Shown in pieces: positions 1,217-43,360 of a DNA stretch of 64,000 nt; position 1 is the first letter of the stretch, and each line of letters starts with the position of its first letter. The DNA comes from an uncultured bacterium (GTDB lineage: Bacteria > Patescibacteriota > Minisyncoccia > UBA6257 > 2-01-FULL-56-20): assembly GCA_963725235.1 (NCBI GenBank), contig CAVRXN010000002.1, forward strand, positions 314,902 through 378,901. Direction: 5' to 3'. Under the pieces are notes generated by a model. That model searched no databases. It was not told the DNA's origin and saw only the letters and a list, made by a program, of their open reading frames with translations. The position numbers and the translations under genes are program-made.

Positions 1217-2011
1217 ATGTACGAACTGACTGTGGGGGAATTTAAGGGGCCGCTCGAGAAGCTGCTGGAGCTTATCGAGGCGGAGAAGATGGACGTGAGC
1301 GAGGTGAGCATGGCACACGTGACGGACGATTTCCTGAAGTACCTCGACGCGCTGAAGTCGAGCGATTTGTTGGCGGGTGTCGCCGAGGAGATGGCGATCG
1401 ACAAGGTGCGGCTCGACCTGCGCGTGCTTGCGGATTTCATCGCGGTCGCGAGCCGGCTGATTTTTTTGAAATCGAAATATTTGTTGCCGGGTTTGGCGCT
1501 AAGCGACGAAGAAGAGGCGGACATCAAAGACCTCGAAGATCGATTGAAGCGTTATCAGGATCTGAAACCGGCATTACGATATTTGAACCAGCTCTGGTCC
1601 GAGCGCCATACATCATATAGCCGTCCATATTTTCTCGGGCAGGGGAAAGGTCTTGCCCCGGACCAGAAAGTTTTTTATCCGGGCGGGAATGTTTCAATCG
1701 AGTCGCTGCAAGCAGCGTTGTCGAGGATTTTTGATTCGATAAAAACGATCGAGATCGAGACGGAAACGATCCGCGAAAAGATCGTTACACTCGAAGAAAA
1801 AATTACCGAAGTGCTTGGCCGCATCCAAAAAGAGGGCGACATGCAATTCAAGAATCTATCCGGCGACAAATCGCGCGGCGAAATGATCGTCGTTTTCCTC
1901 GCAATCCTACATCTCGCCCGCGAGCAGCTGGTCTTAATAGAGCAAATCGGGAATTTTTCTGATATAATGGTGAAGAATTCGCCACCGGAAAAAGTTATTA
2001 AAAAATCATGA
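1217..2011 (+). CDS. scpA: segregation and condensation protein A
   Basis: 264 aa; N-terminus FKGPLEKLLELIEAEKMDVSEVSMAHVTDDFLKYL is typical of ScpA; followed by scpB. Confidence 0.9.
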   Translation: MYELTVGEFKGPLEKLLELIEAEKMDVSEVSMAHVTDDFLKYLDALKSSDLLAGVAEEMAIDKVRLDLRVLADFIAVASRLIFLKSKYLLPGLALSDEEEADIKDLEDRLKRYQDLKPALRYLNQLWSERHTSYSRPYFLGQGKGLAPDQKVFYPGGNVSIESLQAALSRIFDSIKTIEIETETIREKIVTLEEKITEVLGRIQKEGDMQFKNLSGDKSRGEMIVVFLAILHLAREQLVLIEQIGNFSDIMVKNSPPEKVIKKS

Positions 2012-2620
2012 AAGACATTGACAAACAATTGGCAGGCCTCGAAGCGCTGCTTTTCATCCACGGCGAACCGATCGCATACGCAAAAATCGAGTCAGTTTTA
2101 GGATTAAAAAAAGATGAAATCGATGGACTGCTCGCCCAGACTTAAAAAACAGCTCGACGAATCCGACGAGCGCGGCGTCCAACTCGTCATCGGCGGCGGC
2201 AAAGGTACAGAAAAAGTCCAGCTCGCGACAAAACCGGAATTTAATGTCATCCTCGAAAATTTTGTCCGCGAAGAGCTTTCCGAAGATCTGACGCCAGCCA
2301 GCCTGGAAGCGCTCTCTATAATTGCATATCTCGGCCCGATTTCGCGTGCGCGGCTTGAATATCTCCGCGGCGTGAATTCGCTCGTTATTCTAAGAAGCTT
2401 AATGATCCGCGGGTTAATCGAAAGGATCCCAGACCCGGCACACGCAAACGGCTTCGTCTATCAGCCGACATTCGATCTGATGAAGCAGCTCGGCCTGCAG
2501 GGCAAAGAGGATTTGCCGGAATTTGCGCGGTTCCAGGATTTATTAAAAGTATTCGAGGCGCAAAACCCCTCGGCGGCACAATCGTCCACGACACCCGCAA
2601 CAGGCTCCCAGCAAAAATGA
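2008..2620 (+). CDS. scpB: segregation and condensation protein B, frame-disrupted (+1 near 2140)
   Basis: N-terminus MKDIDKQLAGLEALLFIHGEPIAYAKIESVLGL..LLAQ starts at ATG 2008 and continues as LKKQLDES... in the frame of track ORF 2114..2620; winged-helix ScpB motifs (LEALSIIAYLGPISRARLEYLRGV). Confidence 0.8.
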
Positions 2621-3598
2621 ACAATAAAAACTTCTCAAAATTATTTTTTACAGGAGTCGTTATCGGAGTATTCATCTTCTGGATCGCCACAAATCCCGGC
2701 ATTTTTATCAACGGCGGCACGCAAACCGCAGCGGCGAATAGTGCGGCAACTTCGACGACCGTCGCTGGCGGCGCGACAAAGTCCGGCCCGCCAATCTTTA
2801 TTTTGCCCGCGCTTTCGGCGGACATCAGCCAGCAAAACCAACAAGCAACAGCGACCTCATCAAGTGGCAGCACGGCAACGACAGCGCCAAACGTCGGCGC
2901 CTCGGAAATCCTGATCGCCGACCTGCAAAGCGGCGCCAGTTTCTATAGCTTGAACGCCGACCAGCGTTGGCCGATGGCGTCGATCAGCAAGTTGATGACG
3001 GCGGTTATTGCGACCGACGATCTCGACCCGATGGACAGAATAACGATCACGGCGCAGATGACAGCGGTCGATCCGAGTGAAAATGTTTTACATGTCGGCG
3101 ATACGTACACGGTCGAGGATTTGCTCCACGTTATGTTATTGCCGTCGAACAATGTCGCGGCGACGGCGCTCGCAGATTTTTATGGTTATGCAAACTTCAT
3201 GGCTGCGATGAATGCGAAGGCGCAGGCGTGGGGGATGACGGACACCTATTACGATGACCCGTCGGGATTGTCCGCAGCGAACGAATCGACGCCGGACGAT
3301 TTATTAAAACTTGCCCAAAATATTTATTCGCAGTATCCGCAAATCTTGGCGATAACGCGCGAGCCGCAGGCGACCGTCCAAAATCTTGCGACCGGCCAAC
3401 CGGTAATAATTAACAGCATCAACAACTTCGCCGGCACCGCGCCGATTCCTCGGCGGTAAAACCGGTTACACCGACCAAGCCGACGGCAACTTGCTTTCGC
3501 TGTTCAGCTACGACGGCCGCCCGGTCTTCATCGTCGTCATGGGCGTCGACGACGGCGTGCGGTTCGATGCGACACAATCGCTGTATCGATTGGTTTAA
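2617..3598 (+). CDS. D-alanyl-D-alanine carboxypeptidase (peptidase S11), frame-disrupted (+1 near 3445)
   Basis: N-terminal TM segment; SxxK (SISK), SxN (LLPSNN); the KTG motif (FLGGKTGYTDQADGNLL) continues in the next frame to the stop at 3596..3598. Confidence 0.8.
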
Positions 3599-3629
3599 GG
3601 CAAATTTTAAGTAATTTTTAATCCGAGCG

Positions 3630-4688
3630 ATGCAATCAATCATTCTTTCCCAAACGGTGCGCGTGATGGTGCTGGCAACGATCTCATTTTTGGTCGCGCT
3701 TGCGGTTACGCCGCTCTGGATGAAGTTGCTTAATAAGTACGGCTTCAGCAAGCAGCTGCGCGAGTCGAAGGATGCGCCAGTATTTTACGAACTTCATAAG
3801 AAAAAAATTGGCGTGCCGACCGGTGCGGGCATTATCATTTGGTCGACCGTCCTCGCCCTCGCGATCATCTTCGATATTTTGGGCCACGTTTTTGACGGTT
3901 TCTGGCATTACATGAACTTCATTGACCGCCCAGAAACATATTTACCGCTCGCGGCACTTTTCCTTGCCGGTTTGCTCGGTCTGATTGACGATTGGCTTGG
4001 CGCCCTGAAGCTTGGCGGTGCATCGGGTGGAGGATTGCAGGTCAGATATAAATCTATCTTCTATGTTCTTGCAGGTGCAGTCGGCGCCTGGTGGTTCTAT
4101 TTCCGTCTCGGCTTCAACACGTTGAATGTGCCTTTCGTCGGCAACATAACGATCGGTTGGTGGTACATCCCACTCTTTATTTTCATCGTGTTCGCGTCTG
4201 CATTTTCCGCGAATGAAACCGACGGCCTCGACGGCTTGCTCGGCGGTTCATCACTGTTCGCATTCTTCGCGCTCATCGCCGTCGCATTCGTCCTTGGTCG
4301 CTATCAGCTCGCCGCGTTTGGCGGGGTGATGATCGGCGCACTCCTCGCGTTCCTCTGGAGCAACATCTATCCCGCGAAGTTCATGATGGGCGACACCGGT
4401 TCGATGGCGCTCGGTATCTCGATCGGTGTCATTGCGATGCTGACGAATACCGCCTTACTCTTACCACTTTTCATGATCATTCCCGTTATCGAATCGCTTT
4501 CGGTCATCATTCAAGTTACATCGAAAAAGCTTCGCGGTGGCAAAAAAATATTCCGGTCTACGCCGATCCATCACCATTTCGAAGCGCTTGGTTGGCCCGA
4601 GTCACAAATCACGATGCGCTTCTGGATCATCTCGACCATCTCGTGTGCGCTAGGGCTTGTGCTGTTTTTCCTGTCGCGGGCGATGTAG
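3630..4688 (+). CDS. mraY: phospho-N-acetylmuramoyl-pentapeptide transferase
   Basis: 352 aa polytopic membrane protein with NETDGLDGL, MGDTGS and PIHHHFE motifs. Confidence 0.95.
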   Translation: MQSIILSQTVRVMVLATISFLVALAVTPLWMKLLNKYGFSKQLRESKDAPVFYELHKKKIGVPTGAGIIIWSTVLALAIIFDILGHVFDGFWHYMNFIDRPETYLPLAALFLAGLLGLIDDWLGALKLGGASGGGLQVRYKSIFYVLAGAVGAWWFYFRLGFNTLNVPFVGNITIGWWYIPLFIFIVFASAFSANETDGLDGLLGGSSLFAFFALIAVAFVLGRYQLAAFGGVMIGALLAFLWSNIYPAKFMMGDTGSMALGISIGVIAMLTNTALLLPLFMIIPVIESLSVIIQVTSKKLRGGKKIFRSTPIHHHFEALGWPESQITMRFWIISTISCALGLVLFFLSRAM

Positions 4689-7318: not shown

Positions 7319-7774
7319 TTATACCTCGATCCGGTAGAACTGCGTGACGACGACGTTTTCGCCGACTTTGGCGATGACATCGTTCACGATGTCGTGGACG
7401 GTTCGCGATTCATCTTTAACATACGGCTGGGCGAGGAGTTCATCGACGTTCGCGGGTGCGGACGCGGCGATCTGCATCGCGAGATCGCGGGCAAGTGCCT
7501 GGAATGGTTCGGAGCGGACGACGAAATCAGTTTCGGCGCGGACCTCTAACAAAACGCCGATGCGGTCGGCGTGGACATATGAATAGGCGAGTCCGGCTCC
7601 GGTTTCCCGGCCGGCGCGCTTTTCAACTTTCGCGATGCCACGTTCGCCGATCAGTGCGCGGGCGCGATCGAAATCGCCATCGGCTTCGACGAGCGCTTTC
7701 CGGCAGTCCATAACGCCGGCTCCCGTCACCTCACGCAATTTTTGCACCATTTCCGCTGTTATTTCTTTTGCCAT
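7319..7774 (-). CDS. tsf: translation elongation factor Ts (short form)
   Basis: 151 aa; UBA-like N-terminus MVQKLREVTGAGVMDCRKALVEADGDFDRA and an EF-Ts core; downstream of rpsB as usual. Confidence 0.9.
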   Translation of the reverse strand: MAKEITAEMVQKLREVTGAGVMDCRKALVEADGDFDRARALIGERGIAKVEKRAGRETGAGLAYSYVHADRIGVLLEVRAETDFVVRSEPFQALARDLAMQIAASAPANVDELLAQPYVKDESRTVHDIVNDVIAKVGENVVVTQFYRIEV

Positions 7775-10366: not shown

Positions 10367-10663
10367 ATGACTGATTTATGTAATGAAATTAATAAGTTCG
10401 GCAGGGGAATGAGCAACGCGGCACGGTATCGGATTATCGAGGCGTTGTTGAAAGGAAAAAAGACGGTAGGCGAGCTTGTAACAATAGTGAAGTTGTCCCA
10501 GCCGGCGGTGTCGCAACATTTGAAAGTGTTGAAGGCATCTGATCTCGTGGTCGACGAGCGGCGCGGACAGGAAGTGTTTTATGCGGTCAACACGGAGTTC
10601 ATGCTGGACTTGCTGACAAAATTGACGAAGGACGTCAGGAAGCAAAAAGGCGGCAAAAATTAA
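10367..10663 (+). CDS. ArsR/SmtB family transcriptional regulator
   Basis: 98 aa; RYRIIEALLKGKKTVGELVTIVKLSQPAVSQHLKVLKASDLV is a typical ArsR wHTH. Confidence 0.85.
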   Translation: MTDLCNEINKFGRGMSNAARYRIIEALLKGKKTVGELVTIVKLSQPAVSQHLKVLKASDLVVDERRGQEVFYAVNTEFMLDLLTKLTKDVRKQKGGKN

Positions 10664-10702
10664 AAATTAATTAAATTAAGTTAAAAAATTATTAAAAATA
10701 AC

Positions 10703-11320
10703 ATGGACTACACAAAACGTGCGGATGACAATAGCATTGCGGCGACGGTGAAAGCGCTCGGCGAAAAGAATGTAGAAGCGATCGTTGTTGCGACGAAAGA
10801 TGAGGCGCTCACGAAAATAAAAGAACTTATTCCGGCAGGCGCATCAGTGATGAATGGCTCGTCACAGACGCTTGGAGCGGTCGGATTTATCGAATATCTG
10901 AAATCGGGAACGCATGGCTGGAACAATCTCCACGCAGCGATTGTTGCCGAAAAAGATCCAGCGAAGCAGTCGGCGCTCCGCAAGCAGTCGGCCTTATCTG
11001 ACTATTACCTCGGTTCCGTACATGCACTCGCGCAAACAGGAGAGTTCGTCGTCGCGTCCGCATCCGGCAGCCAGTTGGCGCATATCGTTTTCACGTCGCC
11101 GAATTTAATCTTTGTCGTCGGCACGCAAAAGATTGTGCCAACGCTCGATGAAGCTCGGGCGCGCGTCGCGCAATATGTTTTTCCGCTCGAAGACGCACGC
11201 ATGAAATCGACCGGGGCACCAGGCAGCGTATTTTCCAAAGAATTTATTTTCCATACCGAACCGGCTGCAATGGGCCGCAAGCTCCGGATGATCATCGTAA
11301 AAGAGCCGCTCGGATTCTAA
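10703..11320 (+). CDS. LUD (lactate utilisation C-like, DUF162) domain protein
   Basis: 205 aa; YLGSVHALAQTGEFVVASASGSQL and VVGTQKIVPTLDEA resemble LUD-domain proteins. Confidence 0.65.
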   Translation: MDYTKRADDNSIAATVKALGEKNVEAIVVATKDEALTKIKELIPAGASVMNGSSQTLGAVGFIEYLKSGTHGWNNLHAAIVAEKDPAKQSALRKQSALSDYYLGSVHALAQTGEFVVASASGSQLAHIVFTSPNLIFVVGTQKIVPTLDEARARVAQYVFPLEDARMKSTGAPGSVFSKEFIFHTEPAAMGRKLRMIIVKEPLGF

Positions 11321-11340
11321 CATACTAAGATAGAGGAACC

Positions 11341-12087: not shown

Positions 12088-12104
12088 ACAATCCTAAACC
12101 TTAG

Positions 12105-12190
12105 CGGAGGGGGTGGGATTCGAACCCACGGGTCCCTTTCGGGACGTCGCATTTCAAGTGCGATGGAATGAACCGCTATCCGACCCCTCC
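12105..12190 (-). tRNA. tRNA-Ser (TGA)
   Basis: Manual fold: acceptor GGAGGGG/CCCCTCC, anticodon arm TCGCA-CTTGAAA-TGCGA, long variable hairpin GTCCC-GAAA-GGGAC, T arm GTGGG-TTCGAAT-CCCAC. Confidence 0.85.
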
Positions 12191-12482
12191 TTGCTCTGCA
12201 GATTATCATGAAACGAAGCGACTGGAAAGTCCAGTGCGCGGCGCTCATCCACACAATAAGAAACCCCCTCGCAGGGAGGGGGACAAAGACACAGCCGCCT
12301 TGTCTTTTTAGAACCGCCTACATCGGTACGACTTTAGCGGAGAAGCTCTGACGTCGGAGCTTTCTTTTTTGGAGTTGTGTAACCACATTTTCATCTGCAA
12401 CCCAGGCGATTCTTTTGGCCTCGGCTGCACATATTACTACGCCCGTGAGCGGGAAATATTACAAGACGGCAGGAGGAAAAAG

Positions 12483-12712: not shown

Positions 12713-12730
12713 GGAACATATTAAAACATC

Positions 12731-32420: not shown

Positions 32421-32501
32421 TAGCTATAGGATACGCAATTTTGCCAACAAAAACAATCTTATGCACAGATGTAACGAAAATGTAATCATTTTTGCTCTAT
32501 A

Positions 32502-33767
32502 ATGAGAGCAACGGGTCGACGGCACCAGTTTTTTGCCGTTGACAATATTTTCATGCCGACTAAGCGCACCACAACAAAAAAGCCGAAACAGAAGAAGTTA
32601 AGTTTGAGTGCGCGTTTGAAAATGCACGCCGGTCAGCGTAAGACGCATGCGATAGCGAAGCCGAAATCAAAGGCAAAAGCAATACGACCTGCAAAATTAA
32701 AAAAGAAAGCACCGGTTCTACCGCCGGTCGCACATGCGAATCCCGATCTGCTTCGGAAGCACGACGCGAATCCGATTATCGAACCGCGAGCGAGGAATTA
32801 TTGGGAGATGAAAGCGACCTTCAATCCGGCGGCGGTATATGCCGACCGGCGTGTGCATCTATTATATCGCGCGATCGGCGGCGATGATATTTCCGTTTTA
32901 GGATATGCGGCGAGCAGCGATGGGATGTCGATTGATGAACGATCTGAAGAACCGGCGTTTACACCGATCGTAAAGAAGAAAACGCCGGAGGAAATTGTTG
33001 CGGCGAAAGTTGAAGCGCCCGCATATTCTTCCGGCGGCGGATGGAATGGCGGCTGCGAAGATCCGCGGCTGACGATGATCGACGATAGGATTTATTTAAT
33101 GTACACGGCGTTCGATGGATGGGGTTCGATAAGGATTGCGCTTGCGTCAATCGGTACGGATGATTTTCTCGCGCGGCGATGGCAGTGGAAAAATCCGATG
33201 TTGCTTTCGCCGCCGGGACAGATCCACAAAAATTGGCTTTTGTTCCCCGAAAAGATTAATGGAAAATTTGCCATACTGCACGGGATTACGCCGACCATCA
33301 TGATTGAGTATCTCGACTCACTGGATTTTGACGGCGATGTTTTCATAAAAAGCGAACGGCCTCCGAATGAATATGTTCAAACGAGAAAAGAAGGATGGGA
33401 TAGTCGGTTGCGCGGTGCCGGCCCGCCGCCGATCAAGACGGACGAAGGGTGGTTGCTCTTTTATCATGCGATGGATATGCGCGACCCGAACCGATATAAA
33501 CTGGGAGCGATGATCCTCGCTTTAAATGATCCGACAAAAATTTTATATCGTTCGCAGGCACCGATACTCGAGCCGGAAGAATGGTACGAGAACACGGGTT
33601 GGAAGTCGGGTGTTGTATATTCCTGCGGAGCGGTCGTGAAAGATGGCGAACTCTATGTATATTACGGCGGGGCGGACTCGGTGGTCTGTGTCGCCATGGC
33701 GAATCTGAATGAATTTGTTAACCATTTGAAGAATGAAGGAATCGCAAAATTAACACCGCAAAAATAA
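32502..33767 (+). CDS. GH130 family glycosidase/phosphorylase with basic N-terminal tail
   Basis: 421 aa (alternative start ATG 32553); NPIIEP..WEMKATFNPAAV.., GCEDPRLT, DEGWLLFYHA, VYYGGADS. Confidence 0.8.
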   Translation: MRATGRRHQFFAVDNIFMPTKRTTTKKPKQKKLSLSARLKMHAGQRKTHAIAKPKSKAKAIRPAKLKKKAPVLPPVAHANPDLLRKHDANPIIEPRARNYWEMKATFNPAAVYADRRVHLLYRAIGGDDISVLGYAASSDGMSIDERSEEPAFTPIVKKKTPEEIVAAKVEAPAYSSGGGWNGGCEDPRLTMIDDRIYLMYTAFDGWGSIRIALASIGTDDFLARRWQWKNPMLLSPPGQIHKNWLLFPEKINGKFAILHGITPTIMIEYLDSLDFDGDVFIKSERPPNEYVQTRKEGWDSRLRGAGPPPIKTDEGWLLFYHAMDMRDPNRYKLGAMILALNDPTKILYRSQAPILEPEEWYENTGWKSGVVYSCGAVVKDGELYVYYGGADSVVCVAMANLNEFVNHLKNEGIAKLTPQK

Positions 33768-35719
33768 TGCCATCCATTAAACGCTCGCCCGAAAACCCAA
33801 TCCTAGCGCCGAATCCTGCGGTCCCATGGGAAAGCGCGGCCACCTATAATCCATCGGTCGTCGAAGGCGTCGACGGCAAGATTCACATGTTCTATCGCGC
33901 GACTTCAATGACTGAAAAAGCCGGCGATACGGGCGTATTGATCTCGTCGATAGGGCGCGCCGTAAGCAAAGACGGGATCCATTTTACCGAGCGCGACCAG
34001 CTCGTCTTCCCGATGCGCGACTGGGAAAAGTTCGGCTGCGAAGATCCGCGCGTCACGGAGTTCGAGGGCAAATATTATATTTTCTATACCGCCGTTTCGG
34101 AATTTTCCGCGAACGGCATTAAGGTCGCGCGTCGCGATCACGCGCGACTTGAAAACGATAGACGAAAAACATCTAGTGACGCCGTTCAATGCGAAGGCGA
34201 TGGCGTTGTTTCCGGAGCGGATCGGTGCGGACAAAGATGGCAAGGGCGGCAAGATCGCAGCGCTCCTAACCGTGAACACCGATAAGCCGCCGGCAAAAAT
34301 CTGTCTCGCGCTGTTCGACCGCATCGAAGACATATGGTCGGAAGAATATTGGAAAGAATGGTATGAGCATTTCGAGGATCACGCGCTCGACATCGAGCAG
34401 AATGAGAAGGACCAGCTCGAGCTCGGCTCGGCGCCCGTAAAAACCGAAAGACGGGTGGCTCGTATTTTATTCATATATTTATAATTATTTTTCACCAGCC
34501 GGCGACGTTTGGCGTCCAGGCGATTTTGCTCGACCAACGCGATCCGATGAAAATTGTCGGCGAAGTGAAGCGGCCATTTCTCGTGCCCGAAGATGAGTAT
34601 GAAGCGTATGGCCGCGTGCCGCAAGTCGTTTTTCCATCAGGCGCGCTTATACAAAAAAATCAAATATATCTTTATTACGGCGCGACGGACACGACGTCGT
34701 GCGTCGCGACGATGGAATTGAAAGAGCTTCTCGAGGAAATGAAATTTGTCACGGCGCGGCAATTGGTCCGATTCGAGAAAAATCCGATCATCGTGCCGAT
34801 GGCCGAACACAGCTGGGAATCGAAGGCGACATTTAATCCGGCCGCGGTCTATGAAGGTGGCAAGGTTCGTATCTTTTATCGCGCGATGTCGGATGACAAT
34901 ACGTCGACGATCGGCTATGCGAGCTCAGCAGATGGCGTCGATATCGAAAAGCGTGAAGCCAGATCCGGTCTATGTCCCGCGCGCCGATTTCGAACAGAAG
35001 CATGTGCCCGGCGGGAATTCGGGCTGCGAAGATCCACGCATGACGAAAATCGGTGACGTGCTTTATATGTGCTACACGGCTTTTAACGGCCAAGATCCGC
35101 CGCGCGTCGCATTCACCTCGATCGGCATCCGCTGACATGCTCGACCACAAATGGAACTGGTCGAAGCCGGTTTTGATTTCGCCGCCGGGCCTCGACGATA
35201 AAGATGCGGCGCTTTTCCCGCGAAAAATCGATGGGAAATATTGGTTCCTGCACCGGCTCGGCTCGGATATCTGGATCGATTCAGTACCTGATCTAAATTT
35301 CGACGGCGAGACAAAATTTATCGGTGGAAAAATTTTGATGCGGCCCGCGCGACACAGCATGGGATTCGAAGCGGATTGGTATCAGCGCGCCACCGATCGA
35401 GACCCGCGACGGCTGGCTCTTGCTCTACCATGGAATTTCGAAACGAACGAACCACTATAATATCCGCGCGGCGTTGCTCGATCTCCGCGATCCGTCAAAA
35501 ATTTTATACCGTACGCACGACACATTGCTTGAACCAAAAATGCCGTACGAACGCGAAGGCTTGGTTAATAATGTCGTCTTCCCATGCGGTGCCGTCGTCA
35601 TTCGCAACCAACTTTTCGTCTATTATGGCGGCGCAGATAAATACGTCGCCGTCGGAACGATTGATTTGAAAGCGCTCGTCAGCGGGCTTGTCAAAGAGGC
35701 GAAGTTTCAGGTACAATGA
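33767..35719 (+). CDS. tandem double GH130 glycosidase, frame-disrupted (six +1 shifts)
   Basis: Two GH130 modules (GCEDPRVT.. and GCEDPRMT..) read through frames 2>0>1>2>0>1>2 across track ORFs 33767, 34149, 34526, 34746, 35053 and 35420. Confidence 0.75.
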
Positions 35720-35725
35720 CTCCCG

Positions 35726-36289
35726 ATGGCACTCGCATATACTGATTTAGTCAAGGGAACTTTGTTCATTATGGATGGCGCACCGTACGAGGTGATCGAC
35801 ATGCATTTTTTGCGCATGCAACAGCGGAAGGCGACGGTGCAGACCCGGATTCGCAACTTGATCACGGGCAAATTGCTCGACCGCAATTTCCAGGCGAGCG
35901 ATAACTTCGAGGAAGCCGAGATCGAGCGCAAAAACGCGATGTTTATTTACGCCGCGAAGGGTGAATATTGGTTTCATGCCGAAGGCGATCCGAAAGCGCG
36001 GTTTTCACTGTCCGAAGAACTCGTCGGTGACCAGGGCCAGTTTTTGAAACCCAACACGAAAGTGCAGACGATGGTGTTTAACGACAAAGTTATTAAAGTT
36101 GAAATTCCAATCAAGATGGACTTTAAAGTCATCGAAGCGCCGCCGGCCATCCGCGGCAACACTTCGCAGGGCGGCACGAAAGTCGTCACCGTCGAAGGCG
36201 GCGCGAAAGTAAACGTTCCGCTCTTTATCAACGAAGGCGAGACCATCCGCATCAACACGACGACCGGGGATTATGTGGAGAGAGTGTAA
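35726..36289 (+). CDS. efp: translation elongation factor P
   Basis: 187 aa; typical EF-P (LVKGTLFIMDGAPYEVIDMHFLRMQQRKATVQTRIRNLITGK). Confidence 0.95.
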   Translation: MALAYTDLVKGTLFIMDGAPYEVIDMHFLRMQQRKATVQTRIRNLITGKLLDRNFQASDNFEEAEIERKNAMFIYAAKGEYWFHAEGDPKARFSLSEELVGDQGQFLKPNTKVQTMVFNDKVIKVEIPIKMDFKVIEAPPAIRGNTSQGGTKVVTVEGGAKVNVPLFINEGETIRINTTTGDYVERV

Positions 36290-36292
36290 TTT

Positions 36293-36502
36293 ATGGCAAT
36301 AAAATACGATAAATCAGTTGATGCTTTATATATCACCCTTAAAAAGGGGAAGGTTTCTAAGACCAAAGAGGAAAGTGGCTATCTTGTCGATTACGACAAG
36401 CAAGGCGACTTGCTTGGGGTTGAGATTTTGCATTACTCTAAGAAAGCTCCGGTATTGGGGAAAATGACGGTCGGGAAGATTGCGAAGTCGGTTGCTGGAT
36501 AA
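36293..36502 (+). CDS. DUF2283 domain protein
   Basis: 69 aa; MAIKYDKSVDALYITLKKGKVSKTKE..VDYDKQGDLLGVEILHYS matches the DUF2283 pattern. Confidence 0.7.
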   Translation: MAIKYDKSVDALYITLKKGKVSKTKEESGYLVDYDKQGDLLGVEILHYSKKAPVLGKMTVGKIAKSVAG

Positions 36503-36558
36503 GAAAAAGGCGCAGTCGAGTGAACGACCGCGCCGAGTAACAAGGTAGAGGAATAAAA

Positions 36559-36759
36559 TCATCTAGCCCTTCGACGAGAAAACAAAAGAGTGCGCATTCC
36601 ATGGATGGACACCGTACCGATTGCTCCCGCAAGAACATACGGATAGTCTTCGTGTAGACCAATGTATTGCGCGACGCGGTAGGCGAGAAAGCCCATAAGG
36701 ACTGCTACGATGGCAACCGCCAAAAACTTTCCAATCAAGATACCTAATCTTTGGGGCAT
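36559..36759 (-). CDS. small membrane protein (66 aa)
   Basis: GGAG RBS 8 nt upstream of the internal ATG at 36759; two hydrophobic helices; the longer track start would overlap the mnmA start. Confidence 0.4.
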   Translation of the reverse strand: MPQRLGILIGKFLAVAIVAVLMGFLAYRVAQYIGLHEDYPYVLAGAIGTVSIHGMRTLLFSRRRAR

Positions 36760-36800
36760 CGAAAAACTCCTGAATAGGAATTTACCCTTTATATAAAAGA

Positions 36801-37922
36801 ATGTCAATGCAATCTAAAACTGTCTTCGTCGGCATGTCGGGTGGAGTGGACAGCTCTGTCACGGCATTGCTACTCAAGAACCAGGGCTATAACGTCGTGG
36901 GTGTTTTCATGCGCTGTTACAATCTCGACGGCTGCGCCGAGCGCGACGCGGAGGATGCCCGGCGGGTCGCGGAACATATTGGCATCCCGTTCTATGTTTG
37001 GGATTTCGAAGAAGAATATAAACAGCGCGTGGTCGAATATATGATCGACGGTTATCGTGCGGGCATCACGCCGAACCCGGATGTCATGTGCAATCGCGAG
37101 ATTAAATTTGGATTATTCCTCGAGAAGGCGCTCGCGGCTGGCGCGGATTTTGTTGCGACGGGGCATTATGTAAAGATTAAAAATTCATTAAAAGGTGGTG
37201 TTGCCAGCGCGAAATTATTCGCCGCACGCGACAAAAACAAAGATCAGTCCTATTTCCTCTGGACGTTAACTCAGCAACAACTCCAGCACTGCCTATTTCC
37301 AATCGGCAATTATCTGAAGCCGGAAGTTCGTCGGATTGCTGCGCGCGCCGGTTTGCCGACCGCGACAAAAAAAGATTCGCAAGGAATTTGTTTCCTTGGC
37401 GACATCAGCGTCGTTGATTTTTTGAAACAATATATTCCCGAAAAACGCGGTGCACTCGTCACGACGACTGGTGAACGAATCGGCGAACATTTTGGCGCCG
37501 AATTTTATACCATCGGCCAGCGGCATATCGATGCCGACTTCAAGTTCCCGAAGACCGGCGGCGAGCGCCACAATCGTGAGCCATTCTATGTTGCATCGAA
37601 AGATGCAGCGACGAATACGGTCGTCGTGGCGGAAGGTGATGAGAATGAGGCACTGTATCGACAGGAGGTTGAGCTGACACAGGTGAATTTTTTGGCCGAT
37701 GATGGAAATAAAAAGAAAAATGTCATTTCCGAAAAGCCGACCGCTGTCTTCGCCCGCATCCGTTATCGCCAGCCACTTGCGCAGGCGAAACTTTCGCAAT
37801 CAAGTGAGGGCAACGCGGCGCACCTCGAATTCGTCCGCCCGCAAAAATTCGTTGCATCCGGCCAGTCGGCCGTTTGGTACTCAAAAACCGGCGAAATGCT
37901 CGGCGGCGGCGTTATTTTATAA
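36801..37922 (+). CDS. mnmA: tRNA-specific 2-thiouridylase
   Basis: 373 aa; PP-loop VFVGMSGGVDSSV, NPDVMCN, DKNKDQSYFL, KDSQGICF. Confidence 0.9.
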   Translation: MSMQSKTVFVGMSGGVDSSVTALLLKNQGYNVVGVFMRCYNLDGCAERDAEDARRVAEHIGIPFYVWDFEEEYKQRVVEYMIDGYRAGITPNPDVMCNREIKFGLFLEKALAAGADFVATGHYVKIKNSLKGGVASAKLFAARDKNKDQSYFLWTLTQQQLQHCLFPIGNYLKPEVRRIAARAGLPTATKKDSQGICFLGDISVVDFLKQYIPEKRGALVTTTGERIGEHFGAEFYTIGQRHIDADFKFPKTGGERHNREPFYVASKDAATNTVVVAEGDENEALYRQEVELTQVNFLADDGNKKKNVISEKPTAVFARIRYRQPLAQAKLSQSSEGNAAHLEFVRPQKFVASGQSAVWYSKTGEMLGGGVIL

Positions 37923-37973
37923 ATTGAGTTGATAAAATAAAGAATTTGCTGTATCGTCTAAACAGGAGGAAAA

Positions 37974-38099
37974 ATGTTCTTTGTCGGTTTTCTTGATTGC
38001 GTTGCGAATGTTTTCACTTCGGGCATCAGTGGTGCTGAAGTCGGTGTGCTTACCTGGTTTGGGTCGTTCGCCGTGTACAAGTTTTTGAAAAGATCGTAG
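37974..38099 (+). CDS. small membrane protein (41 aa)
   Basis: AGGAGG RBS 5 nt upstream of ATG 37974; MFFVGFLDCVANVFTSGISGAEVGVLTWFGSFAVYKFLKRS; followed by a terminator; too short for the ORF track. Confidence 0.4.
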   Translation: MFFVGFLDCVANVFTSGISGAEVGVLTWFGSFAVYKFLKRS

Positions 38100-38116
38100 T
38101 TCAGTCGAATCCTGCA

Positions 38117-38150
38117 AAGCCGGCGAGCACCACGCTCCGCCGGCTTTTTT
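38117..38150 (+). terminator. rho-independent terminator
   Basis: Stem AAGCCGGCG/CGCCGGCTT followed by TTTTT. Confidence 0.65.
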
Positions 38151-38201
38151 ATTACGCCAAAATACGCTATGCTATGGCAATAACCTTCGCGCCACGCAAA
38201 C

Positions 38202-40022
38202 ATGGAAAGCAGCAAAAACATTCGCAACTTCGTTATCATCGCGCATATCGACTCGGGCAAATCGACGCTCGCCGACCGCTTGCTTGAGATAACGGGAACG
38301 GTGCCGATGCGCTCTATGAAAGCGCAGTATTTGGATCGGATGCCGCTTGAGCGCGAGAGGGGGATTACGATCAAGATGGCACCGGTACGGATGGAATATG
38401 AAAGCGCGGCGATGGCCGGCAGCGCGGGCGCGAACGCGGGTGCGAACATTAAATATATATTAAATTTAATCGACACCCCTGGCCACAGCGACTTTGGCTA
38501 CGAAGTCTCACGTGCACTCGCGGCGGTCGAAGGCGCGATCTTGCTTGTCGATGGAACGAAAGGCATCCAGGCACAAACACTTTCAAATTTACGAGGTGCG
38601 CAGAAAGCGGGCCTCAAAATTATTCCTGCGGTAAACAAGATCGATCTTGGTTTGCCGCAGATCGAGAACGTCGTCAACGCAACGGCCGAGTTGCTCGGCG
38701 TTGATCGCAGTGAAGTTTTTAAAATCTCGGCAAAAACCGGTGCAGGTGCAAAGGAATTGCTCGAAGCCGTCATCGAACAAGTTCCGTCGCCGCGCAAATT
38801 GCCCGGCACCGCCGCGAAGGCGCTCGTATTCGATTCATTATACGACGACCACAAGGGCATCATCGCGTTCGTTCGCGTGTTCGAGGGTGAGTTCAAGGCG
38901 GAGGATATGAAATTCATCGCAAGCGGCGCGAGCTTCAAACCGAAAGAAGTCGGCTATTTTTTCCCGGATTTAAAAGTCTCTCAGAAAATTGCGGATGGCG
39001 AGATGGGTTACGTTGCCACGGGGTTAAAGGATCCGTTGCTCGTCAAGATTGGCGACACGCTTGTTATAGGGAATGGCGCCACTGCGGCGGAAGCCCTTCC
39101 CGGTTATCGCGAACCCGGCCCGGTCGTGTTCATCTCATTCTATCCTGACGGCGCAACGAAGTTTGACGATTTGAAGCGCGCGTTCGAGCGCTTGCAGTTG
39201 AACGACGCCGCGTTGTCGTTCGAACCGGACTCGAACGAGGCGCTCGGTCGCGGTTTGAAAGTTGGGTTCCTCGGCCAGCTCCATTTCGAAATAACATCGG
39301 ATCGGTTGAGCCGCGAATATAATCTGGAATTTTTAACAAGCTTCCCATCGATCGCATATCGCGTGAAAAATAACGGCATCATAGAAATAATCAAGCAGCC
39401 ACAAGATTTTCCGGATAAACCGGAAAAAGTATGGGAGCCACTCGTCGACCTCGAAATATTGGTTCCGCAAAAATATTTGAGCGCCGTGCTCGCACTCCAG
39501 ACGACGTTCGACCTGGAGGTCGGCGAAGTAAAGACGCTCGGCGACAATCTTCTCATCGAATCAAAAATGCCGTTACGCGAGCTGATTCGCGATTTCGATG
39601 ACCAATTGAAATCGTCGTCACAAGGATACGCATCATTTACCTACGAGCTCGCCGGCGAACAGGAAGCGGAAGTGGAAAAATTAGAAATATTAATTGTTGA
39701 TGAAGTCATTCCGGCTCTGACACGAATCGTGCCCAAAAAAGATATCGAGCGCGAAGGGCGGCAGACCGTCGAACGTTTGAAAGATTTACTGCCACAGGAA
39801 CAATTTTCGCAGGCAATCCAGGCGCGAACGCAGGGAAAAATTATAGCTCGCGAAACGATTACAGCTATAAAGAAAAAGCTTGGCGATTTCGGAAAGAACG
39901 GGGGAGACCGGACAAGAAAGATGAAGCTATGGAAGAAACAGGAGCGCGGTAAGGAACGCTTGCAGGGCACCGCCCGCGTCGATATCTCGCCGGAAGTGTT
40001 CCGCGAAATCCTTAAAAAATAA
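38202..40022 (+). CDS. lepA: translation elongation factor 4
   Basis: 606 aa; IRNFVIIAHIDSGKSTLADRLL, DTPGHSDF, NKIDL and a LepA C-terminal domain. Confidence 0.95.
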   Translation: MESSKNIRNFVIIAHIDSGKSTLADRLLEITGTVPMRSMKAQYLDRMPLERERGITIKMAPVRMEYESAAMAGSAGANAGANIKYILNLIDTPGHSDFGYEVSRALAAVEGAILLVDGTKGIQAQTLSNLRGAQKAGLKIIPAVNKIDLGLPQIENVVNATAELLGVDRSEVFKISAKTGAGAKELLEAVIEQVPSPRKLPGTAAKALVFDSLYDDHKGIIAFVRVFEGEFKAEDMKFIASGASFKPKEVGYFFPDLKVSQKIADGEMGYVATGLKDPLLVKIGDTLVIGNGATAAEALPGYREPGPVVFISFYPDGATKFDDLKRAFERLQLNDAALSFEPDSNEALGRGLKVGFLGQLHFEITSDRLSREYNLEFLTSFPSIAYRVKNNGIIEIIKQPQDFPDKPEKVWEPLVDLEILVPQKYLSAVLALQTTFDLEVGEVKTLGDNLLIESKMPLRELIRDFDDQLKSSSQGYASFTYELAGEQEAEVEKLEILIVDEVIPALTRIVPKKDIEREGRQTVERLKDLLPQEQFSQAIQARTQGKIIARETITAIKKKLGDFGKNGGDRTRKMKLWKKQERGKERLQGTARVDISPEVFREILKK

Positions 40023-40280
40023 TGGAATTTTGTGCAGCGGATTTGGTATAATAAAAACGAAGGGAGACAAATGAATAGGCATCGTATAGTCGTGATCGTA
40101 ATTATGTGGCTTCTCCTTTGGTTTTTGCTGTTGAAACTAACCCCGGCAAAGGATGACAAATCCGTAATCGCCTATGGGGGCGCTGCTCTTTTTTGTAGCC
40201 GTATGTCTCTACGTAGGTAGATGTACCATACGGAGCAGGAAATCGCACTCGGGTTGAGTGCGCCTTGCCATTGCTAACAG

Positions 40281-40313
40281 GCGCGGTTCCACACGGACCG
40301 CGCCCTTTTTCTT
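40281..40313 (+). terminator. rho-independent terminator
   Basis: Stem GGCGCGGT/ACCGCGCC followed by CTTTTTCTT. Confidence 0.6.
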
Positions 40314-40351
40314 CCCCACGATCGTATAAATAATATAACCGAACCGAGCGC

Positions 40352-40380
40352 TTGACAAAAAATCATTCATCGGCTATAAT
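40352..40380 (+). promoter_or_regulatory. consensus sigma70-like promoter upstream of the KH-domain gene
   Basis: TTGACA (40352..40357), 17-nt spacer, TATAAT (40375..40380). Confidence 0.6.
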
Positions 40381-40441
40381 CTAAACACAAATTAAGAAAA
40401 GGTCGCAGGAATACAGAAAAATCAGCTAAACCAGTAATTCA

Positions 40442-40741
40442 ATGGCGAATTCATCTACGGCAGACCAGGAATTTCTCGAGTATCTCGTGAAATCGTTGGT
40501 CGACCATCCGGAAGATGTGAAGGTCGATCGAAAAGTCGACGAGATGGGCGTCCTGCTCTCACTTCACGTCAACTCGCTGGACATGGGCCAGGTCGTCGGC
40601 CGTCAGGGTGCGACGGCGAAAGCCATCCGTTCGCTCTTGCGGATCGTGGGCGTAAAGAATAACGCGCGCGTGAACCTCAAGATCGAGGAGCCGGAAGGCA
40701 GCACGCGTCCGCCCCGCGCGGAACGCAGCGAGCAGCAGTAA
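40442..40741 (+). CDS. KH domain RNA-binding protein (UPF0109/KhpA-like)
   Basis: 99 aa; LEYLVKSLVDHPEDVKVD......GQVVGRQGATAKAIRSLLR carries the GxxG KH signature. Confidence 0.8.
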   Translation: MANSSTADQEFLEYLVKSLVDHPEDVKVDRKVDEMGVLLSLHVNSLDMGQVVGRQGATAKAIRSLLRIVGVKNNARVNLKIEEPEGSTRPPRAERSEQQ

Positions 40742-40743
40742 AC

Positions 40744-40774
40744 AAAAATCCCCGAGCAAAATCGGGGATTTTTG
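40744..40774. terminator. bidirectional terminator between convergent KH gene and msrA
   Basis: AAAAATCCCCGA-GCAAA-TCGGGGATTTTT. Confidence 0.65.
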
Positions 40775-41341
40775 TTACTTGCTTTTCTTCTCCAGCAGCT
40801 CCGCAAACTCCTTCTGCAATTTTTCCACCTTCGGTTCGATAATCAATTGGCAATACGGCTGGTTGGGATTCTTCGCGAAGTAATCACGGTGATAACTTTC
40901 GGCTTCGTAGAACTTGTCGAGGGGTTTGATTTCCGTCACAACCGGCCGTCCACCGGGATCGGACGCATTAAGTCGCGCGATAAACGCGATCGCAGCGTCG
41001 CGTTGTGCATCCGTCGTATATAAAATGATCGAACGGTATTGCGTGCCGACGTCGTTGCCCTGGCGATTCAAGGTCGTCGGATCGTGCGTCGCAAAGAAAA
41101 CGGTTAAAAGATCATTAAAAGAAATCTGCGTCGGGTCGAATTCGATCCGGGTTGCTTCGGCATGGCCGGTCGTTCCGCTGCAAACCGCTTCATAGGTCGG
41201 CGCCAGTGCGCCTGCCGGCGTTGCGGGTCCGCCAGCGTAGCCAGGCATGACCGAGATAACACCACGCAATTCCTTGAAGACCGCCTCCGTGCACCAGAAG
41301 CATCCGCCGCCGAAGACCGCTGTTTCATAAAGTTCGGGCAT
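40775..41341 (-). CDS. msrA: peptide-methionine (S)-S-oxide reductase
   Basis: 188 aa; GGGCFWCTEAVF active site, HAEATRIEFDP, HDPTTLNRQGND. Confidence 0.9.
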   Translation of the reverse strand: MPELYETAVFGGGCFWCTEAVFKELRGVISVMPGYAGGPATPAGALAPTYEAVCSGTTGHAEATRIEFDPTQISFNDLLTVFFATHDPTTLNRQGNDVGTQYRSIILYTTDAQRDAAIAFIARLNASDPGGRPVVTEIKPLDKFYEAESYHRDYFAKNPNQPYCQLIIEPKVEKLQKEFAELLEKKSK

Positions 41342-41513
41342 GCCATCTATTATAACTCAAATATGACCCAAAAGCCCATAATCAGGGGTCTTAGACGGAG
41401 GGAAACGAGATCGTGCCAACGAAAACGCAGGCGCGACCTCCCGCTACGGCCCCTGGCTACGGGTTTTTCACGCCGTGAATTCTGCGCGTATTATAATCGT
41501 TAACGCAAAAAAA

Positions 41514-42167
41514 TCAACTGCGTCCGTTCGCGCGTCGCGGCAGCGGTTCCCCGTGCACGGTCGAATAGACGATCTTACCGCCTTCGAAAATGTGTAGATC
41601 GTCGGTTTCTTCCGAGACGGTGAAAATTGTCGTGCCATGAAATGAATACGAGCTCGTGATCGCGGCGATGTGGCGCATGTGCACCTTGTGCTTGAAACCG
41701 AACTGGGTCGAAAGGTCGGGCGCGCGACGCGGATTTAATTTATGCGCCGTCGCACGCGGACGCAGGCCTTCAATCATTGCACCGGAATGGAGAACGTTGC
41801 CGCGCGCGTCGATAAGGATCGCGCCGTCGAAATTGATCGTATGGATGATAGCCTCACGGCGTTTCTCTGTGGCGTATGCTCGCTGCGATGTCACGTTCCC
41901 TCCCGATGCCACCTGGTCAGCGGTCCGCATAATATTGATGTTGTGCTGCTTAAAAATATCCTGTGATGCATCTGGCGTGTCGGCATATTTCTCCCAGCGC
42001 CGATCGTTCCAGCCAAGTATCACAAATAAGCCGAATTTTTTACGGCGTTGCATAAGGTTAAGGATGAGCGCAGCCATCCGTAATTTGAGCGGCAGGGGAG
42101 CCGCGCCGGTGGATTTTGCGAGTGCCTTTTCGATCCGTTGCAGCTCCTTCTTGGAATCCCGTTTCAT
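41514..42167 (-). CDS. DAC (DisA_N / diadenylate cyclase)-like domain protein
   Basis: 217 aa; FDGAILIDARGNVLHSGAMI (DGA motif) and MRHIAAITSS..TIFTVSEETDDLHIFEGGK (degenerate RHRAA, SEET); no TM segments. Confidence 0.5.
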   Translation of the reverse strand: MKRDSKKELQRIEKALAKSTGAAPLPLKLRMAALILNLMQRRKKFGLFVILGWNDRRWEKYADTPDASQDIFKQHNINIMRTADQVASGGNVTSQRAYATEKRREAIIHTINFDGAILIDARGNVLHSGAMIEGLRPRATAHKLNPRRAPDLSTQFGFKHKVHMRHIAAITSSYSFHGTTIFTVSEETDDLHIFEGGKIVYSTVHGEPLPRRANGRS

Positions 42168-42240
42168 TGTTATTCATTATACGACGGACGGCAAGAAAAA
42201 GTTTAGAAAGATTTAATCACCTTTTTGGTATGATGGGCGG

Positions 42241-43360
42241 ATGAACAACAAAAAAATTATTTCAGGTGCGGTTTGGACGGTTGGTTTGCTTGCGGTGGGC
42301 GTCGGTGGGTTCTGGTATTTTTCGGGCGGAGCGGGTCCGGGCGGGAGCGTCGCATGGTCGAACGGCGTCGCGCTCGTCGAGAGTTCGTGGGATGAAGCGG
42401 TCGGGTTGCCGGCGGGGACATCAACGGTCGCGGCTGCGCTGATAGGGAATTCTGAGAGCGACGACGATCAGGGCTCGAATGAACAAGCCGCGCAAGCGAC
42501 GGTGACGCCACCGTCGCCTCCAACGCCTCCAGGGCCGCCGCCGGTCTATTCGATAGCGGATGTTGGCTCGTTCGGATGACACGGATAGCTCGACGACGAT
42601 AACGACGACTTCGGTTGCTATCTCTGCGGTGGCGAGTTCGACACCCTCATCTTCGCAGCCGGCATCAGCGCCAATTGCGGCGCCAGCTCCGTCGCCAACC
42701 GTTTCTTACTCTGCGCCATCGAGCTCCAGCCCGGTTGCGCAGGCGGCTGCAGCGACAACGACGACGGTTGCTACGACTACGCCCGCAGACGTTTCGACGA
42801 CGCCCGTGACGACAGTCGTCGTAACGACGACGTCAACACAGCCGACATCTACGGCACCAACTCCGACTCCACCATCCACGCCCGCACCAGCTTCGATTGA
42901 CCACCTCGTCATCGTACAGGTGCAAATCGCGGGCGCAGCGAGTACCAATGATTTTGTGAAAATTTTCAATCCGACTGGCGCGGCAGTCGATTTGAGCGGT
43001 TGGAAGTTACATAAAAAATCGAGTACGGGAACGGATTACTCGCTAAAAACATTTGCGACTGGCGCAAGCATAGCATCGGGTGGTTACATAACCTGGGCAA
43101 ATTCGGAAAATGGATTTGCCGATTCGATCGGTGCCGACGTATCGAGTACGGAAACGCTATCGGCTGACAACAGTGTCGCGCTGATGGACCCGAGTGAAAC
43201 GGTAATCGATGCGGTAGCATGGGGAACCGGCACAAATCAATACGTCGAAGGCGATGCGTACCCGGACAGCCCGACTGCAAACCAAGTTTTGGTCCGGAAA
43301 TCAGTCGCAAGCACCGTTGTCGATACGGATGATAATGCAAATGACTTTACGGCGCAGTAA
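42241..43360 (+). CDS. membrane-anchored lamin tail domain (LTD) protein, probably frame-disrupted (+1 near 42570)
   Basis: TM N-terminus (track ORF 42241..42579), Ser/Thr/Pro-rich linker, then the C-terminal LTD pattern FVKIFNPTGAAVDLSGWKL...ALMDPSETVIDAVAWG...NDF (ORF 42560..43360). Confidence 0.65.

Follow-up and report, generated by a model that had tools for sequence, protein, structure and literature searches.

The frame disruptions that interrupt conserved genes in the window, as we call the whole 64,000-nucleotide stretch analysed here, are most probably (roughly four chances in five) an artefact of consensus building or polishing in a mixed-strain population and not features of the organism. 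We read the insertions as consensus errors rather than biology because an independent, near-identical assembly has the genes intact. They are absent from that assembly and from relatives, they are co-located with SNP-dense patches, and 21 of 21 sites fit two alleles.

Between 2.1 and 42.6 kb, conserved genes carry 29–30 single-base insertions and 1–2 single-base deletions. Ten genes are broken (scpB, S11 peptidase, rpsB, ATP-grasp, ftsI, murF, ctp, exonuclease, double GH130 and LTD protein), the essential rpsB, ftsI and murF among them. The sequence-only reading had counted about 25 disruptions, almost all of them +1. Its sites were all borne out, each to about 12 nt, and the disruptions are real; the count was slightly low, five events having been overlooked (S11 at ~3587, +1; 16912, −1; 16938, +1; 22961, +1; 22998–23002, +1). 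The bias towards insertions stands, qualified by the deletions, of which that at 16912 is clear. A transition at 22170–22180 that had seemed ambiguous resolves into two separate +1 insertions 5–10 nt apart. The sites are as follows.

2131–2140, plus strand: extra base in scpB, frame 0 to 1 (frameshift-aware alignment, 5 relatives)
3442–3445, plus strand: extra base in S11 D-Ala-D-Ala carboxypeptidase (5 relatives)
3587–3590, plus strand: second extra base in S11 peptidase, near the C-terminus (next-frame SLY|DWFKANFK in 5 relatives)
8383, minus strand: extra base in rpsB, GCGGCT-G-GCATTC in gene orientation (window-only 1-nt insertion against L015, L016 and L017)
16727–16728, plus strand: extra base in ATP-grasp, CGA+G, relatives having CGA or CGG (window-only against L008, L002, L010 and near-identical L014)
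16820–16825, plus strand: extra base in ATP-grasp (relatives including L008, L002 and L010)
16912–16913, plus strand: one base missing in ATP-grasp, the only clear deletion (window-only 1-nt gap against L008, L002 and L010)
16938–16939, plus strand: extra base in ATP-grasp, GGA+T, GGT in relatives (relatives' alignment)
17027–17033, plus strand: extra base in ATP-grasp (relatives' alignment)
21548–21551, plus strand: extra base in ftsI, CAA-G-AAT-TTT, with AAT in L012 and GAA in L007/L008
22170–22172, plus strand: extra base in ftsI (L012 alignment and relatives)
22177–22180, plus strand: extra base in ftsI, 3' of the preceding one (L012 alignment and relatives)
22614–22616, plus strand: extra base in ftsI, ACGC equalling L012 AGC and L007/L008 ACG merged
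22961–22963, plus strand: extra base in the ftsI C-terminal tail (L012 alignment and relatives)
22998–23002, plus strand: extra base in murF codons 4–5 (L012 alignment and relatives)
23185–23186, plus strand: extra base in murF (L012 alignment and relatives)
23202–23205, plus strand: extra base in murF, GATT equalling L012 ATT and L001/L004 GAT merged
23323, plus strand: extra base in murF, A+CGA, AGA and CGA both Arg
23556–23561, plus strand: extra base in murF (L012 alignment and relatives)
24194, plus strand: extra base in murF (L012 alignment and relatives)
25079–25083, plus strand: extra base in ctp (S41 protease), GG-C-A, GGC and GGA both Gly
28159–28161, plus strand: extra base in 3'-5' exonuclease, CC-G-C, CCG and CCC both Pro
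28286–28289, plus strand: extra base in exonuclease, GACC equalling L012 ACC and L007/L008 GAC/GAT merged
34131, plus strand: extra base in double GH130 (window-only against L009)
34444, plus strand: extra base in double GH130 (L009 alignment)
34498, plus strand: extra base in double GH130, CCA+G, CCA and CCG both Pro (L009 alignment)
34959–34962, plus strand: extra base in double GH130 (L009 alignment)
35131, plus strand: extra base in double GH130 (L009 alignment)
35307–35309, plus strand: +1/−1 pair in double GH130, 2 nt apart, net shift 0 (L009 alignment), equally readable as three substitutions (GGCGAG versus GGGATG)
35342, plus strand: extra base in double GH130 (L009 alignment)
42571–42577, plus strand: LTD (lamin-tail-domain) protein, frame 0 to 1 (frameshift-aware alignment, placed to a range only)

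Three Pfam profiles are each split over two fragments: SMC_ScpB in scpB (profile positions 3–35 and 37–159), Peptidase_S11 (3–185 and 205–238) and Ribosomal_S2 in rpsB (1–47 and 46–216). After 16912 the ATP-grasp gene runs for 8 codons (YPLRTQKG) in the shifted frame, up to 16938. The LTD shift falls in the linker joining the membrane anchor to the LTD domain, and four homologues (353–397 aa) span both fragments at 60–62% identity.

Our reference was an independent assembly, the Logan contigs of run ERR11523662, four of which (L009, L012, L013 and L014) span 38 kb of the window. Identity is 99.97% for L014 (window 10506–16788), 98.55% for L012 (19759–28741), 99.56% for L009 (29794–40780) and 99.96% for L013 (42582–54620); L012 and L009 each span a SNP-dense patch. 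Window and L009 differ in homopolymer length at three positions (33245, 40189 and 40758). The frameshift at 33245 is in the Logan contig and not in the window; the reference itself is not error-free.

Comparison with close genomes had been proposed from the sequence alone as a check on the shifts. Now run, it finds the ERR11523662 assembly without any testable insertion and its genes whole: FtsI (546 aa), MurF (425 aa), Ctp (408 aa), the exonuclease (239 aa) and the double GH130 of L009 (648 aa) are all intact. Of the gene-breaking insertions, 22 lie where L009, L012 or L014 covers the window, and all 22 are window-only. Genes are also intact at the sites in farther relatives, namely L007, L008 and L010 (82–89% nucleotide identity) and L002 (77%), and in the more distant relatives used for the rpsB, scpB, S11 and LTD sites. 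No shift is conserved in any relative, across relatives at 60% to 99.97% identity. Aligned to L013, the window has no indels and 5 SNPs over 12,039 nt (42582–54620). The earlier statement that 43.4–64 kb is clean is upheld by this alignment to 54620; from 54.6 to 64 kb the intact long ORFs suggest an absence of shifts.

SNPs between the window and the Logan contigs fall largely in two patches.

21773–24191: SNP-dense patch against L012, with 93 of the 115 SNPs of the alignment, ~3.9% divergence, mostly at third codon positions
33803–35557: SNP-dense patch against L009, with 30 of the 37 SNPs of the alignment and all GH130 insertions

The first patch encloses 10 of the 11 ftsI/murF insertions, that at 21548 lying just upstream of the first SNP. 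SNPs within ±150 nt number 6.76 at insertions versus 1.23 at random positions (0 of 5,000 permutations, P<2e-4), and 19 of the 22 gene-breaking insertions fall where 3 or more SNPs are close by, which is true of 14% of the sequence. Sites 16728 and 21548 are at the edge of SNP-dense stretches, outside them. About one in ten SNPs of the dense patches has turned into an insertion. The error had earlier been read as coverage-dependent; clustered the shifts are, but they track SNP-dense patches and not anything that could be tied to coverage.

In a two-allele test, we deleted a different base no more than 5 nt away from each inserted one and scored a pass when the second allele was synonymous or gave a residue known in relatives. 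All 21 sites pass against 11.4 expected (P ~2.4e-6), a P value that is post hoc because the hypothesis arose after inspection of the sites, with about half of random insertions passing. The clearest case is 22170–22180, where the window has GGA-C-AAG ATC ACG-T-CCG, L012 has CAT ATC GGT and L008 has AAG ATA ACG. The extra bases are the first of L012 CAT and the last of L012 GGT, set around L008-type AAG ATC ACG.

Minus the extra bases, ftsI, murF, ctp, exonuclease and GH130 contain no internal stops and are 97–100% identical in amino acids to the Logan proteins. Relative to the Logan haplotype, murF has 45 synonymous and 6 non-synonymous codon differences, with 49 of 53 differences at third positions, and the exonuclease has 7 synonymous and no non-synonymous codons. 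Neither nonsense substitutions nor an excess of random non-synonymous substitutions was found in the repaired genes against this haplotype. By these codon counts, the repaired genes are under purifying selection.

Insertions that duplicate a neighbouring base, noted earlier, are no commoner than chance: among the 21 precisely placed sites only 7 do so, giving a run of 2, where chance would give ~44%; the remaining 14 are runs of 1 and none exceeds 2. The window has 168 long homopolymers (A/T ≥6, C/G ≥5), all of them more than 3 nt away from any site. No motif is shared by the 21 sites over ±10 nt, the largest column information being 0.55 bit (relative entropy). Homopolymer-length sequencing error of the nanopore, 454 or Ion Torrent type is excluded by the runs of only 1–2, such errors typically falling in runs of at least 4, and transcriptional slippage rescue was rejected since the frameshifts have no long A/T tract. 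The sequence-only reading had favoured insertion-biased consensus error, for instance in an unpolished long-read assembly. The former is supported; "unpolished" is too simple a description, with 168 of 168 long homopolymers untouched and 12 kb free of indels.

From this pattern we infer that alleles have been merged, as well as the sequencing platform and software involved. Two co-existing strains (haplotypes) of a Paceibacterota-like bacterium would differ at the affected sites, both alleles being present in the source sample. Reads of both would pile onto one contig, and a consensus or polishing step would keep both alleles' bases next to each other, such as A+CGA from AGA/CGA or ACGC from AGC/ACG. 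Each merge would add one base and move the frame by +1. As a common supersequence, the merged text would contain each allele in full, so that errors would nearly always be insertions, and merging would confine them to polymorphic patches regardless of homopolymers. A pure supersequence model would not yield the deletion at 16912. One candidate source is a noisy-long-read consensus model that penalises indel errors less than substitutions. A polisher could also be responsible, if a variant is represented as an insertion plus a deletion and only the insertion is accepted. Strain heterogeneity, previously raised as an alternative to artefact, would thus be part of its cause and not its rival.

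Residual long-read errors could also have survived in the variable patches, through low coverage of a minor strain or unmappable short reads, independently of which sites are polymorphic. Raw errors of some long-read chemistries are insertion-rich, and such errors would likewise be absent from other assemblies and cluster in divergent patches; the 16912 deletion and the length differences at 33245, 40189 and 40758 resemble ordinary noise. We nevertheless consider this explanation unlikely, given that a second plausible allele can be read at 21 of 21 sites where random insertions would yield 11.4, that the pair at 22170–22180 copies the bases of the other haplotype exactly, and that there is neither a surplus of random non-synonymous substitutions nor any involvement of homopolymers.

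Genuine mutation, with ftsI, murF, rpsB and others having recently become pseudogenes as the lineage decays under relaxed selection, is very unlikely. The insertions do lie on a haplotype unlike the intact Logan one and could in principle be strain-specific, but they strike essential genes (rpsB, ftsI and murF) up to six times each, and 29–30 insertions against 1–2 deletions is not the mixed lesion spectrum expected of pseudogenes, in which deletions would be at least as frequent as insertions, nonsense and missense changes would occur and dN/dS would be raised. Bacterial mutation is deletion-biased. Moreover, nonsense changes are absent, differences are mainly synonymous and no insertion is common to any relative. 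It is extremely unlikely that one strain's chromosome truly carries the extra bases, the strain either surviving its multiply frameshifted ftsI, murF and rpsB by a novel, motif-independent +1 recoding or persisting as a defective lineage complemented by the co-existing intact strain or by its host. Programmed recoding, by which a +1 ribosome shift or RNA polymerase slippage yields full-length proteins, would account for the uniform +1 direction. We give it next to no chance: the sites share neither motif nor homopolymer, shifts occur up to ~100 nt ahead of the old-frame stop and not at a stop or rare codon, two of them are only 5–10 nt apart, and they are conserved neither in the 98.6–99.97% identical genome nor in any relative.

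Consensus error in a mixed-strain population has partial precedents. An IDEEL-type full-length-protein test has been used to measure how indels truncate genes in (meta)genomes assembled from long reads (PMC9262707), and polishers are reported to fail or introduce frameshifts in heterozygous regions (PMC8092372). As in the long-read truncation cases (PMC9262707), single-base indels in the window split conserved genes, are missing from accurate assemblies and were found via full-length homologues. Usual long-read cases, however, are homopolymer-length errors, often deletions and genome-wide, whereas those in the window are non-homopolymer insertions in strain-variable patches only. The collapsed-haplotype failures addressed by haplotype-aware polishers such as Hapo-G (PMC8092372) are similar in that the window's errors match SNP-dense patches and resemble two-allele mixtures, although the Hapo-G setting is diploid eukaryotes and short-read polishing and ours is metagenomic, with a bacterial population. 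The strict pattern of alleles side by side giving +1, which we did not find described in PMC9262707 or PMC8092372, is our own reading of this window. Programmed +1 frameshifting (prfB type; genome-wide in Euplotes) likewise needs +1 for the protein, but there a slippery codon precedes a stop or rare codon and the site is conserved among relatives, neither of which applies here. Endosymbionts with poly(A) slippage rescue likewise combine genome reduction with frameshifts in essential genes; their rescue sites are long A/T runs, whereas the 168 long homopolymers of the window are uninvolved.

The genes are almost certainly intact in the organism itself, so the disruptions have no biological significance and are of low biological interest. 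They do matter for the record, where ten genes, rpsB, ftsI and murF among them, would receive pseudogene or fragment annotations. Such annotation would lower completeness estimates and could make a candidate-phylum bacterium with a reduced genome seem to have lost genes that it retains. Insertion-only, homopolymer-independent errors found only in SNP-dense patches would be diagnostic of a contig collapsed from two strains, and where they are present haplotype-aware polishing, rather than further polishing of the usual kind, would be required.

An alternative genetic code was also considered and rejected, since the disruptions are frame changes at the nucleotide level and not in-frame stops. 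The stops ending intact genes are TAA (31), TGA (12) and TAG (8).

Conserved genes between 2.1 and 42.6 kb of the window are broken by single-base changes of reading frame. Sites were placed with a purpose-written, frameshift-tolerant protein-to-DNA aligner, with relatives from a genome scan as queries, and base-level calls were made from three-way nucleotide alignments. Consecutive Pfam profile coordinates are split over adjacent ORF fragments in different frames, and protein alignments located further events:

scpB: Pfam ScpB 3–35 and 37–159 on two fragments, shift at 2131–2140
S11 (D-Ala-D-Ala carboxypeptidase) gene: Peptidase_S11 3–185 and 205–238 on two fragments, shifts at 3442–3445 and ~3587
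rpsB: Ribosomal_S2 1–47 and 46–216 on two fragments, window-only base at 8383
ATP-grasp gene: four +1 events and one −1 event, by protein-to-DNA alignment
ftsI: four +1 events, by protein-to-DNA alignment
murF: five +1 events, by protein-to-DNA alignment
ctp: PDZ/S41 domains split across frames (Pfam)
exonuclease gene: PolB-like domain split across frames (Pfam)
double GH130 gene: two GH130 domains split across frames (Pfam)
LTD (lamin-tail-domain protein) gene: a single ORF in four homologues spanning both window fragments, shift at 42571–42577

The ftsI events at 22170 and 22180 are separate +1 shifts around three in-frame codons, on which five of five relatives agree. In the nucleotide alignments every disruption is one window-only base, and two more insertions were found at 22963 and 22998. 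The total of 29–30 insertions and 1–2 deletions in ten genes bears out, and extends, the sequence-only reading of about 25 clustered and nearly all +1 shifts. Control genes (mraZ, rsmH, dnaX, a hypothetical, L9 and L27) have in-frame indels only relative to L007 and L008, contigs of more distant relatives. When every retrieved relative was screened for neighbouring matches in different frames, no sites beyond those already known were flagged.

Protein matches place the window, which has a GC content of ~52%, in a Patescibacteria (Paceibacterota-like) genome. In the genome collection, relatives of RsmH (53–70%) are confined to Paceibacterota-like Patescibacteria MAGs, and homologues of MurF, GH130 and LTD also carry such labels. 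These collection relatives served for protein-level placement and are unsuited to base-level calls. With the extra bases taken out, murF translates without a stop codon, and the resulting protein matches intact 425-residue proteins with 94–95% identity. The contigs of these matches, L007 and L008, are syntenic with the window at 12–32 kb (82–89% nucleotide identity), and in them ftsI, murF, ctp, the exonuclease gene and the ATP-grasp gene are all intact.

The rebuilt double-GH130 protein matches a 648-residue protein from Logan run ERR11523662 with 97% identity. Three further contigs of this near-identical, independently assembled genome (the Logan strain) were found by exact look-ups of intact window proteins. 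The same kind of look-up gave no match for rsmH, GH130-1, L9 and the proteins at 7319–7774 (−) and 3630–4688, so that near-identical reference sequence is confined to the four stretches listed below.

Logan contigs of ERR11523662 aligned to the window (contig; window positions; identity)
L014; 10506–16788; 99.97%
L012; 19759–28741; 98.55%
L009 (10,978 nt); 29794–40780; 99.56%
L013; 42582–54620; 99.96%

The Logan contigs encode intact FtsI (546 aa), MurF (425), Ctp (408), exonuclease (239) and double GH130 (648). Comparison with close genomes, as proposed in the sequence-only reading, gave a uniform result: all 22 gene-breaking insertions within the covered 38.3 kb are window-only bases, absent from the ERR11523662 contigs. 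Sites at 0–10.5, 16.8–19.7, 40.8–42.6 and 54.6–64 kb rest on relatives of 60–87% identity. The downstream region that had been called free of shifts contains no indels where L013 covers it (42582–54620), and the clean status of 54.6–64 kb is based on intact ORFs. Since a near-identical genome lacks the insertions, and rpsB, ftsI and murF are essential, the organism does not need these frameshifts and almost certainly does not itself carry them. Members of the MurF and GH130 clusters were also searched for the window's own haplotype in intact form, and none was closer than the copy in the Logan strain. A literature search found no mention of accession ERR11523662.

The Logan contigs are an imperfect reference, as a reversed case at 33245 shows. 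Here the window reads CCCC and has an intact 421-residue GH130 gene (32502–33767), whereas L009 reads CCC and splits the gene into 266 and 155 residues; the L007 homologue is intact (431 aa). Three single-base length differences outside genes could reflect either routine noise or true variation: a T run (six versus five) at 40189 and an A-run difference at 40758, where a terminator-like hairpin (CCCCGAGC-AAAA-TCGGGG) has its loop, both with no SNPs nearby, and one missing base at 24381, downstream of murF. Logan contig ends at 16788, 40780 and 42582 lie 12–60 nt from indel sites, a hint that they may mark strain branch points; the pair at 28741/29794 is instead explained by a transposase gene.

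The insertions follow sequence divergence. With positions taken from the alignments to the near-identical contigs, the inserted base stands alone at 14 sites and forms a run of two at seven. The window has 168 long homopolymers, all of them more than 3 nt away from any site, and no motif is common to the insertion sites. Duplication of a neighbouring base, which had been noted at several candidate insertions, was discarded as a signature, as it occurs at 7 of 21 sites and is not above chance. Most SNPs relative to L012 (93 of 115) fall in 21773–24191, the ftsI/murF stretch with 10 of its 11 insertions, and 30 of the 37 relative to L009 fall in 33803–35557, the GH130 stretch with 6–7 insertions. 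L013 has five SNPs over 12 kb, and the single SNP and single insertion against L014 are both close to its end, where the ATP-grasp cluster begins. The mean number of SNPs within 150 nt is 6.76 for insertions versus 1.23 for random covered positions (0 of 5,000 permutations). The pattern in murF marks these SNPs as genuine variation instead of noise: third codon positions hold 49 of 53, and the change is synonymous in 45 of 51 altered codons. Hence, in SNP-dense patches the window follows a second, functional haplotype.

Individual sites suggest how two haplotypes could yield an extra base. In A+CGA, both AGA and CGA encode Arg, and in CC+G+C and GG+C+A the extra base is at third codon positions. 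ACGC in the window is AGC in the Logan strain and ACG in L007/L008; GATT reads as ATT/GAT, and GACC as ACC/GAC. Where the window has GGA-C-AAG ATC ACG-T-CCG, the Logan strain has CAT ATC GGT and L008 has AAG ATA ACG. The window sites would be both strain alleles written in tandem. Such an insertion-only supersequence would be expected from a consensus model that penalises indel errors less than substitutions, or from a polisher that applies the insertion half of a variant and leaves out the rest. Polishers are documented to fail in heterozygous regions, including by adding frameshifts (PMC8092372), and the IDEEL test is built on indel-driven protein truncation in long-read MAGs (PMC9262707).

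In a two-allele test, another base up to 5 nt away was deleted, the second allele had to be distinct, and each changed codon had to be synonymous or specify an amino acid that relatives also have. All 21 sites pass, against 11.4 expected (P ~2.4e-6, for a post hoc hypothesis), random insertions into the same genes passing 42–61% of the time. A stricter test, restricted to synonymous single-site merges, gave 10 of 21 versus 7.6 expected (P=0.18), which is not significant alone; the two-allele signal also needs residues seen in relatives and 2–3 nt 'shifted codon' variants. Because the hypothesis is post hoc and the stricter test is not significant alone, we rate allele merging as a probable mechanism and no higher. 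The error pattern is useful as a diagnostic of collapsed strains.

We conclude that the frame disruptions are an assembly artefact (probability above 0.95) and not a real biological feature. The preference for consensus error in the sequence-only reading is supported by the intact near-identical assembly, with the amendment that the driver is strain polymorphism and neither homopolymers nor a general lack of polishing. Plain residual error from low coverage would likewise cluster in divergent patches, but it fails to account for three observations: the two-allele result at 21 of 21 sites, the lack of non-synonymous changes of a random kind, and the recurrence of the other haplotype's bases at 22170–22180.

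Biological readings are contradicted. Real pseudogenisation would have to strike essential genes, up to six times per gene, with nearly all events being insertions (29–30 versus 1–2 deletions), no nonsense changes and mainly synonymous substitutions. Transcriptional slippage or a programmed +1 frameshift is at odds with sites that have neither motif nor homopolymer, with shifts that come well before the stop codon of the old frame, with two shifts only 5–10 nt apart and with the lack of conservation in the near-identical genome.

An alternative genetic code was also rejected, and there is no sign of UAG reassignment, TAG for one still terminating 8 of 51 intact genes. ARAGORN calls a tRNA at 26950–27024 (−) with anticodon CTA, which would read UAG and is labelled 'Pyl' (Rfam tRNA, 49 bits). 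The anticodon arm appears atypical, and this tRNA could be a false call.

Other elements were noted in the window. A 497-residue ORF at 56629–58122 (+), in the otherwise clean region, has a GTG start, matches no Pfam family and scores lower than its neighbours in codon usage. The ATP-grasp gene is separated from mraZ by some 2.3 kb (17300–19400), a stretch that has no counterpart in L002, a relative at 77% nucleotide identity, and corresponds to only ~1 kb in L008; it holds overlapping small ORFs (17319–17597 and 17594–17851) and a 307-residue ORF without a Pfam match. A 346-residue transposase/integrase (rve, HTH_32) at 28740–29780 (−) fills the gap between L012 (end 28741) and L009 (start 29794) and is missing from the syntenic L007. 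It is therefore probably an IS element that this lineage acquired and that has further copies elsewhere in the genome.

The stretch 32502–35719 encodes three consecutive GH130 (beta-mannoside phosphorylase-like) domains: the single-domain gene GH130-1 is followed directly by the two-domain gene, a form widespread in Paceibacterota (>100 homologues, 66–84% identity). Immediately 5′ of the likely GH130-1 start codon is a hairpin at 32512–32552 (GGGTCGACGGCA...TGCCGTTGAC), conserved in L007 apart from small flanking indels, which could be a regulatory 5′ leader; that is the hairpin itself, not the indels.
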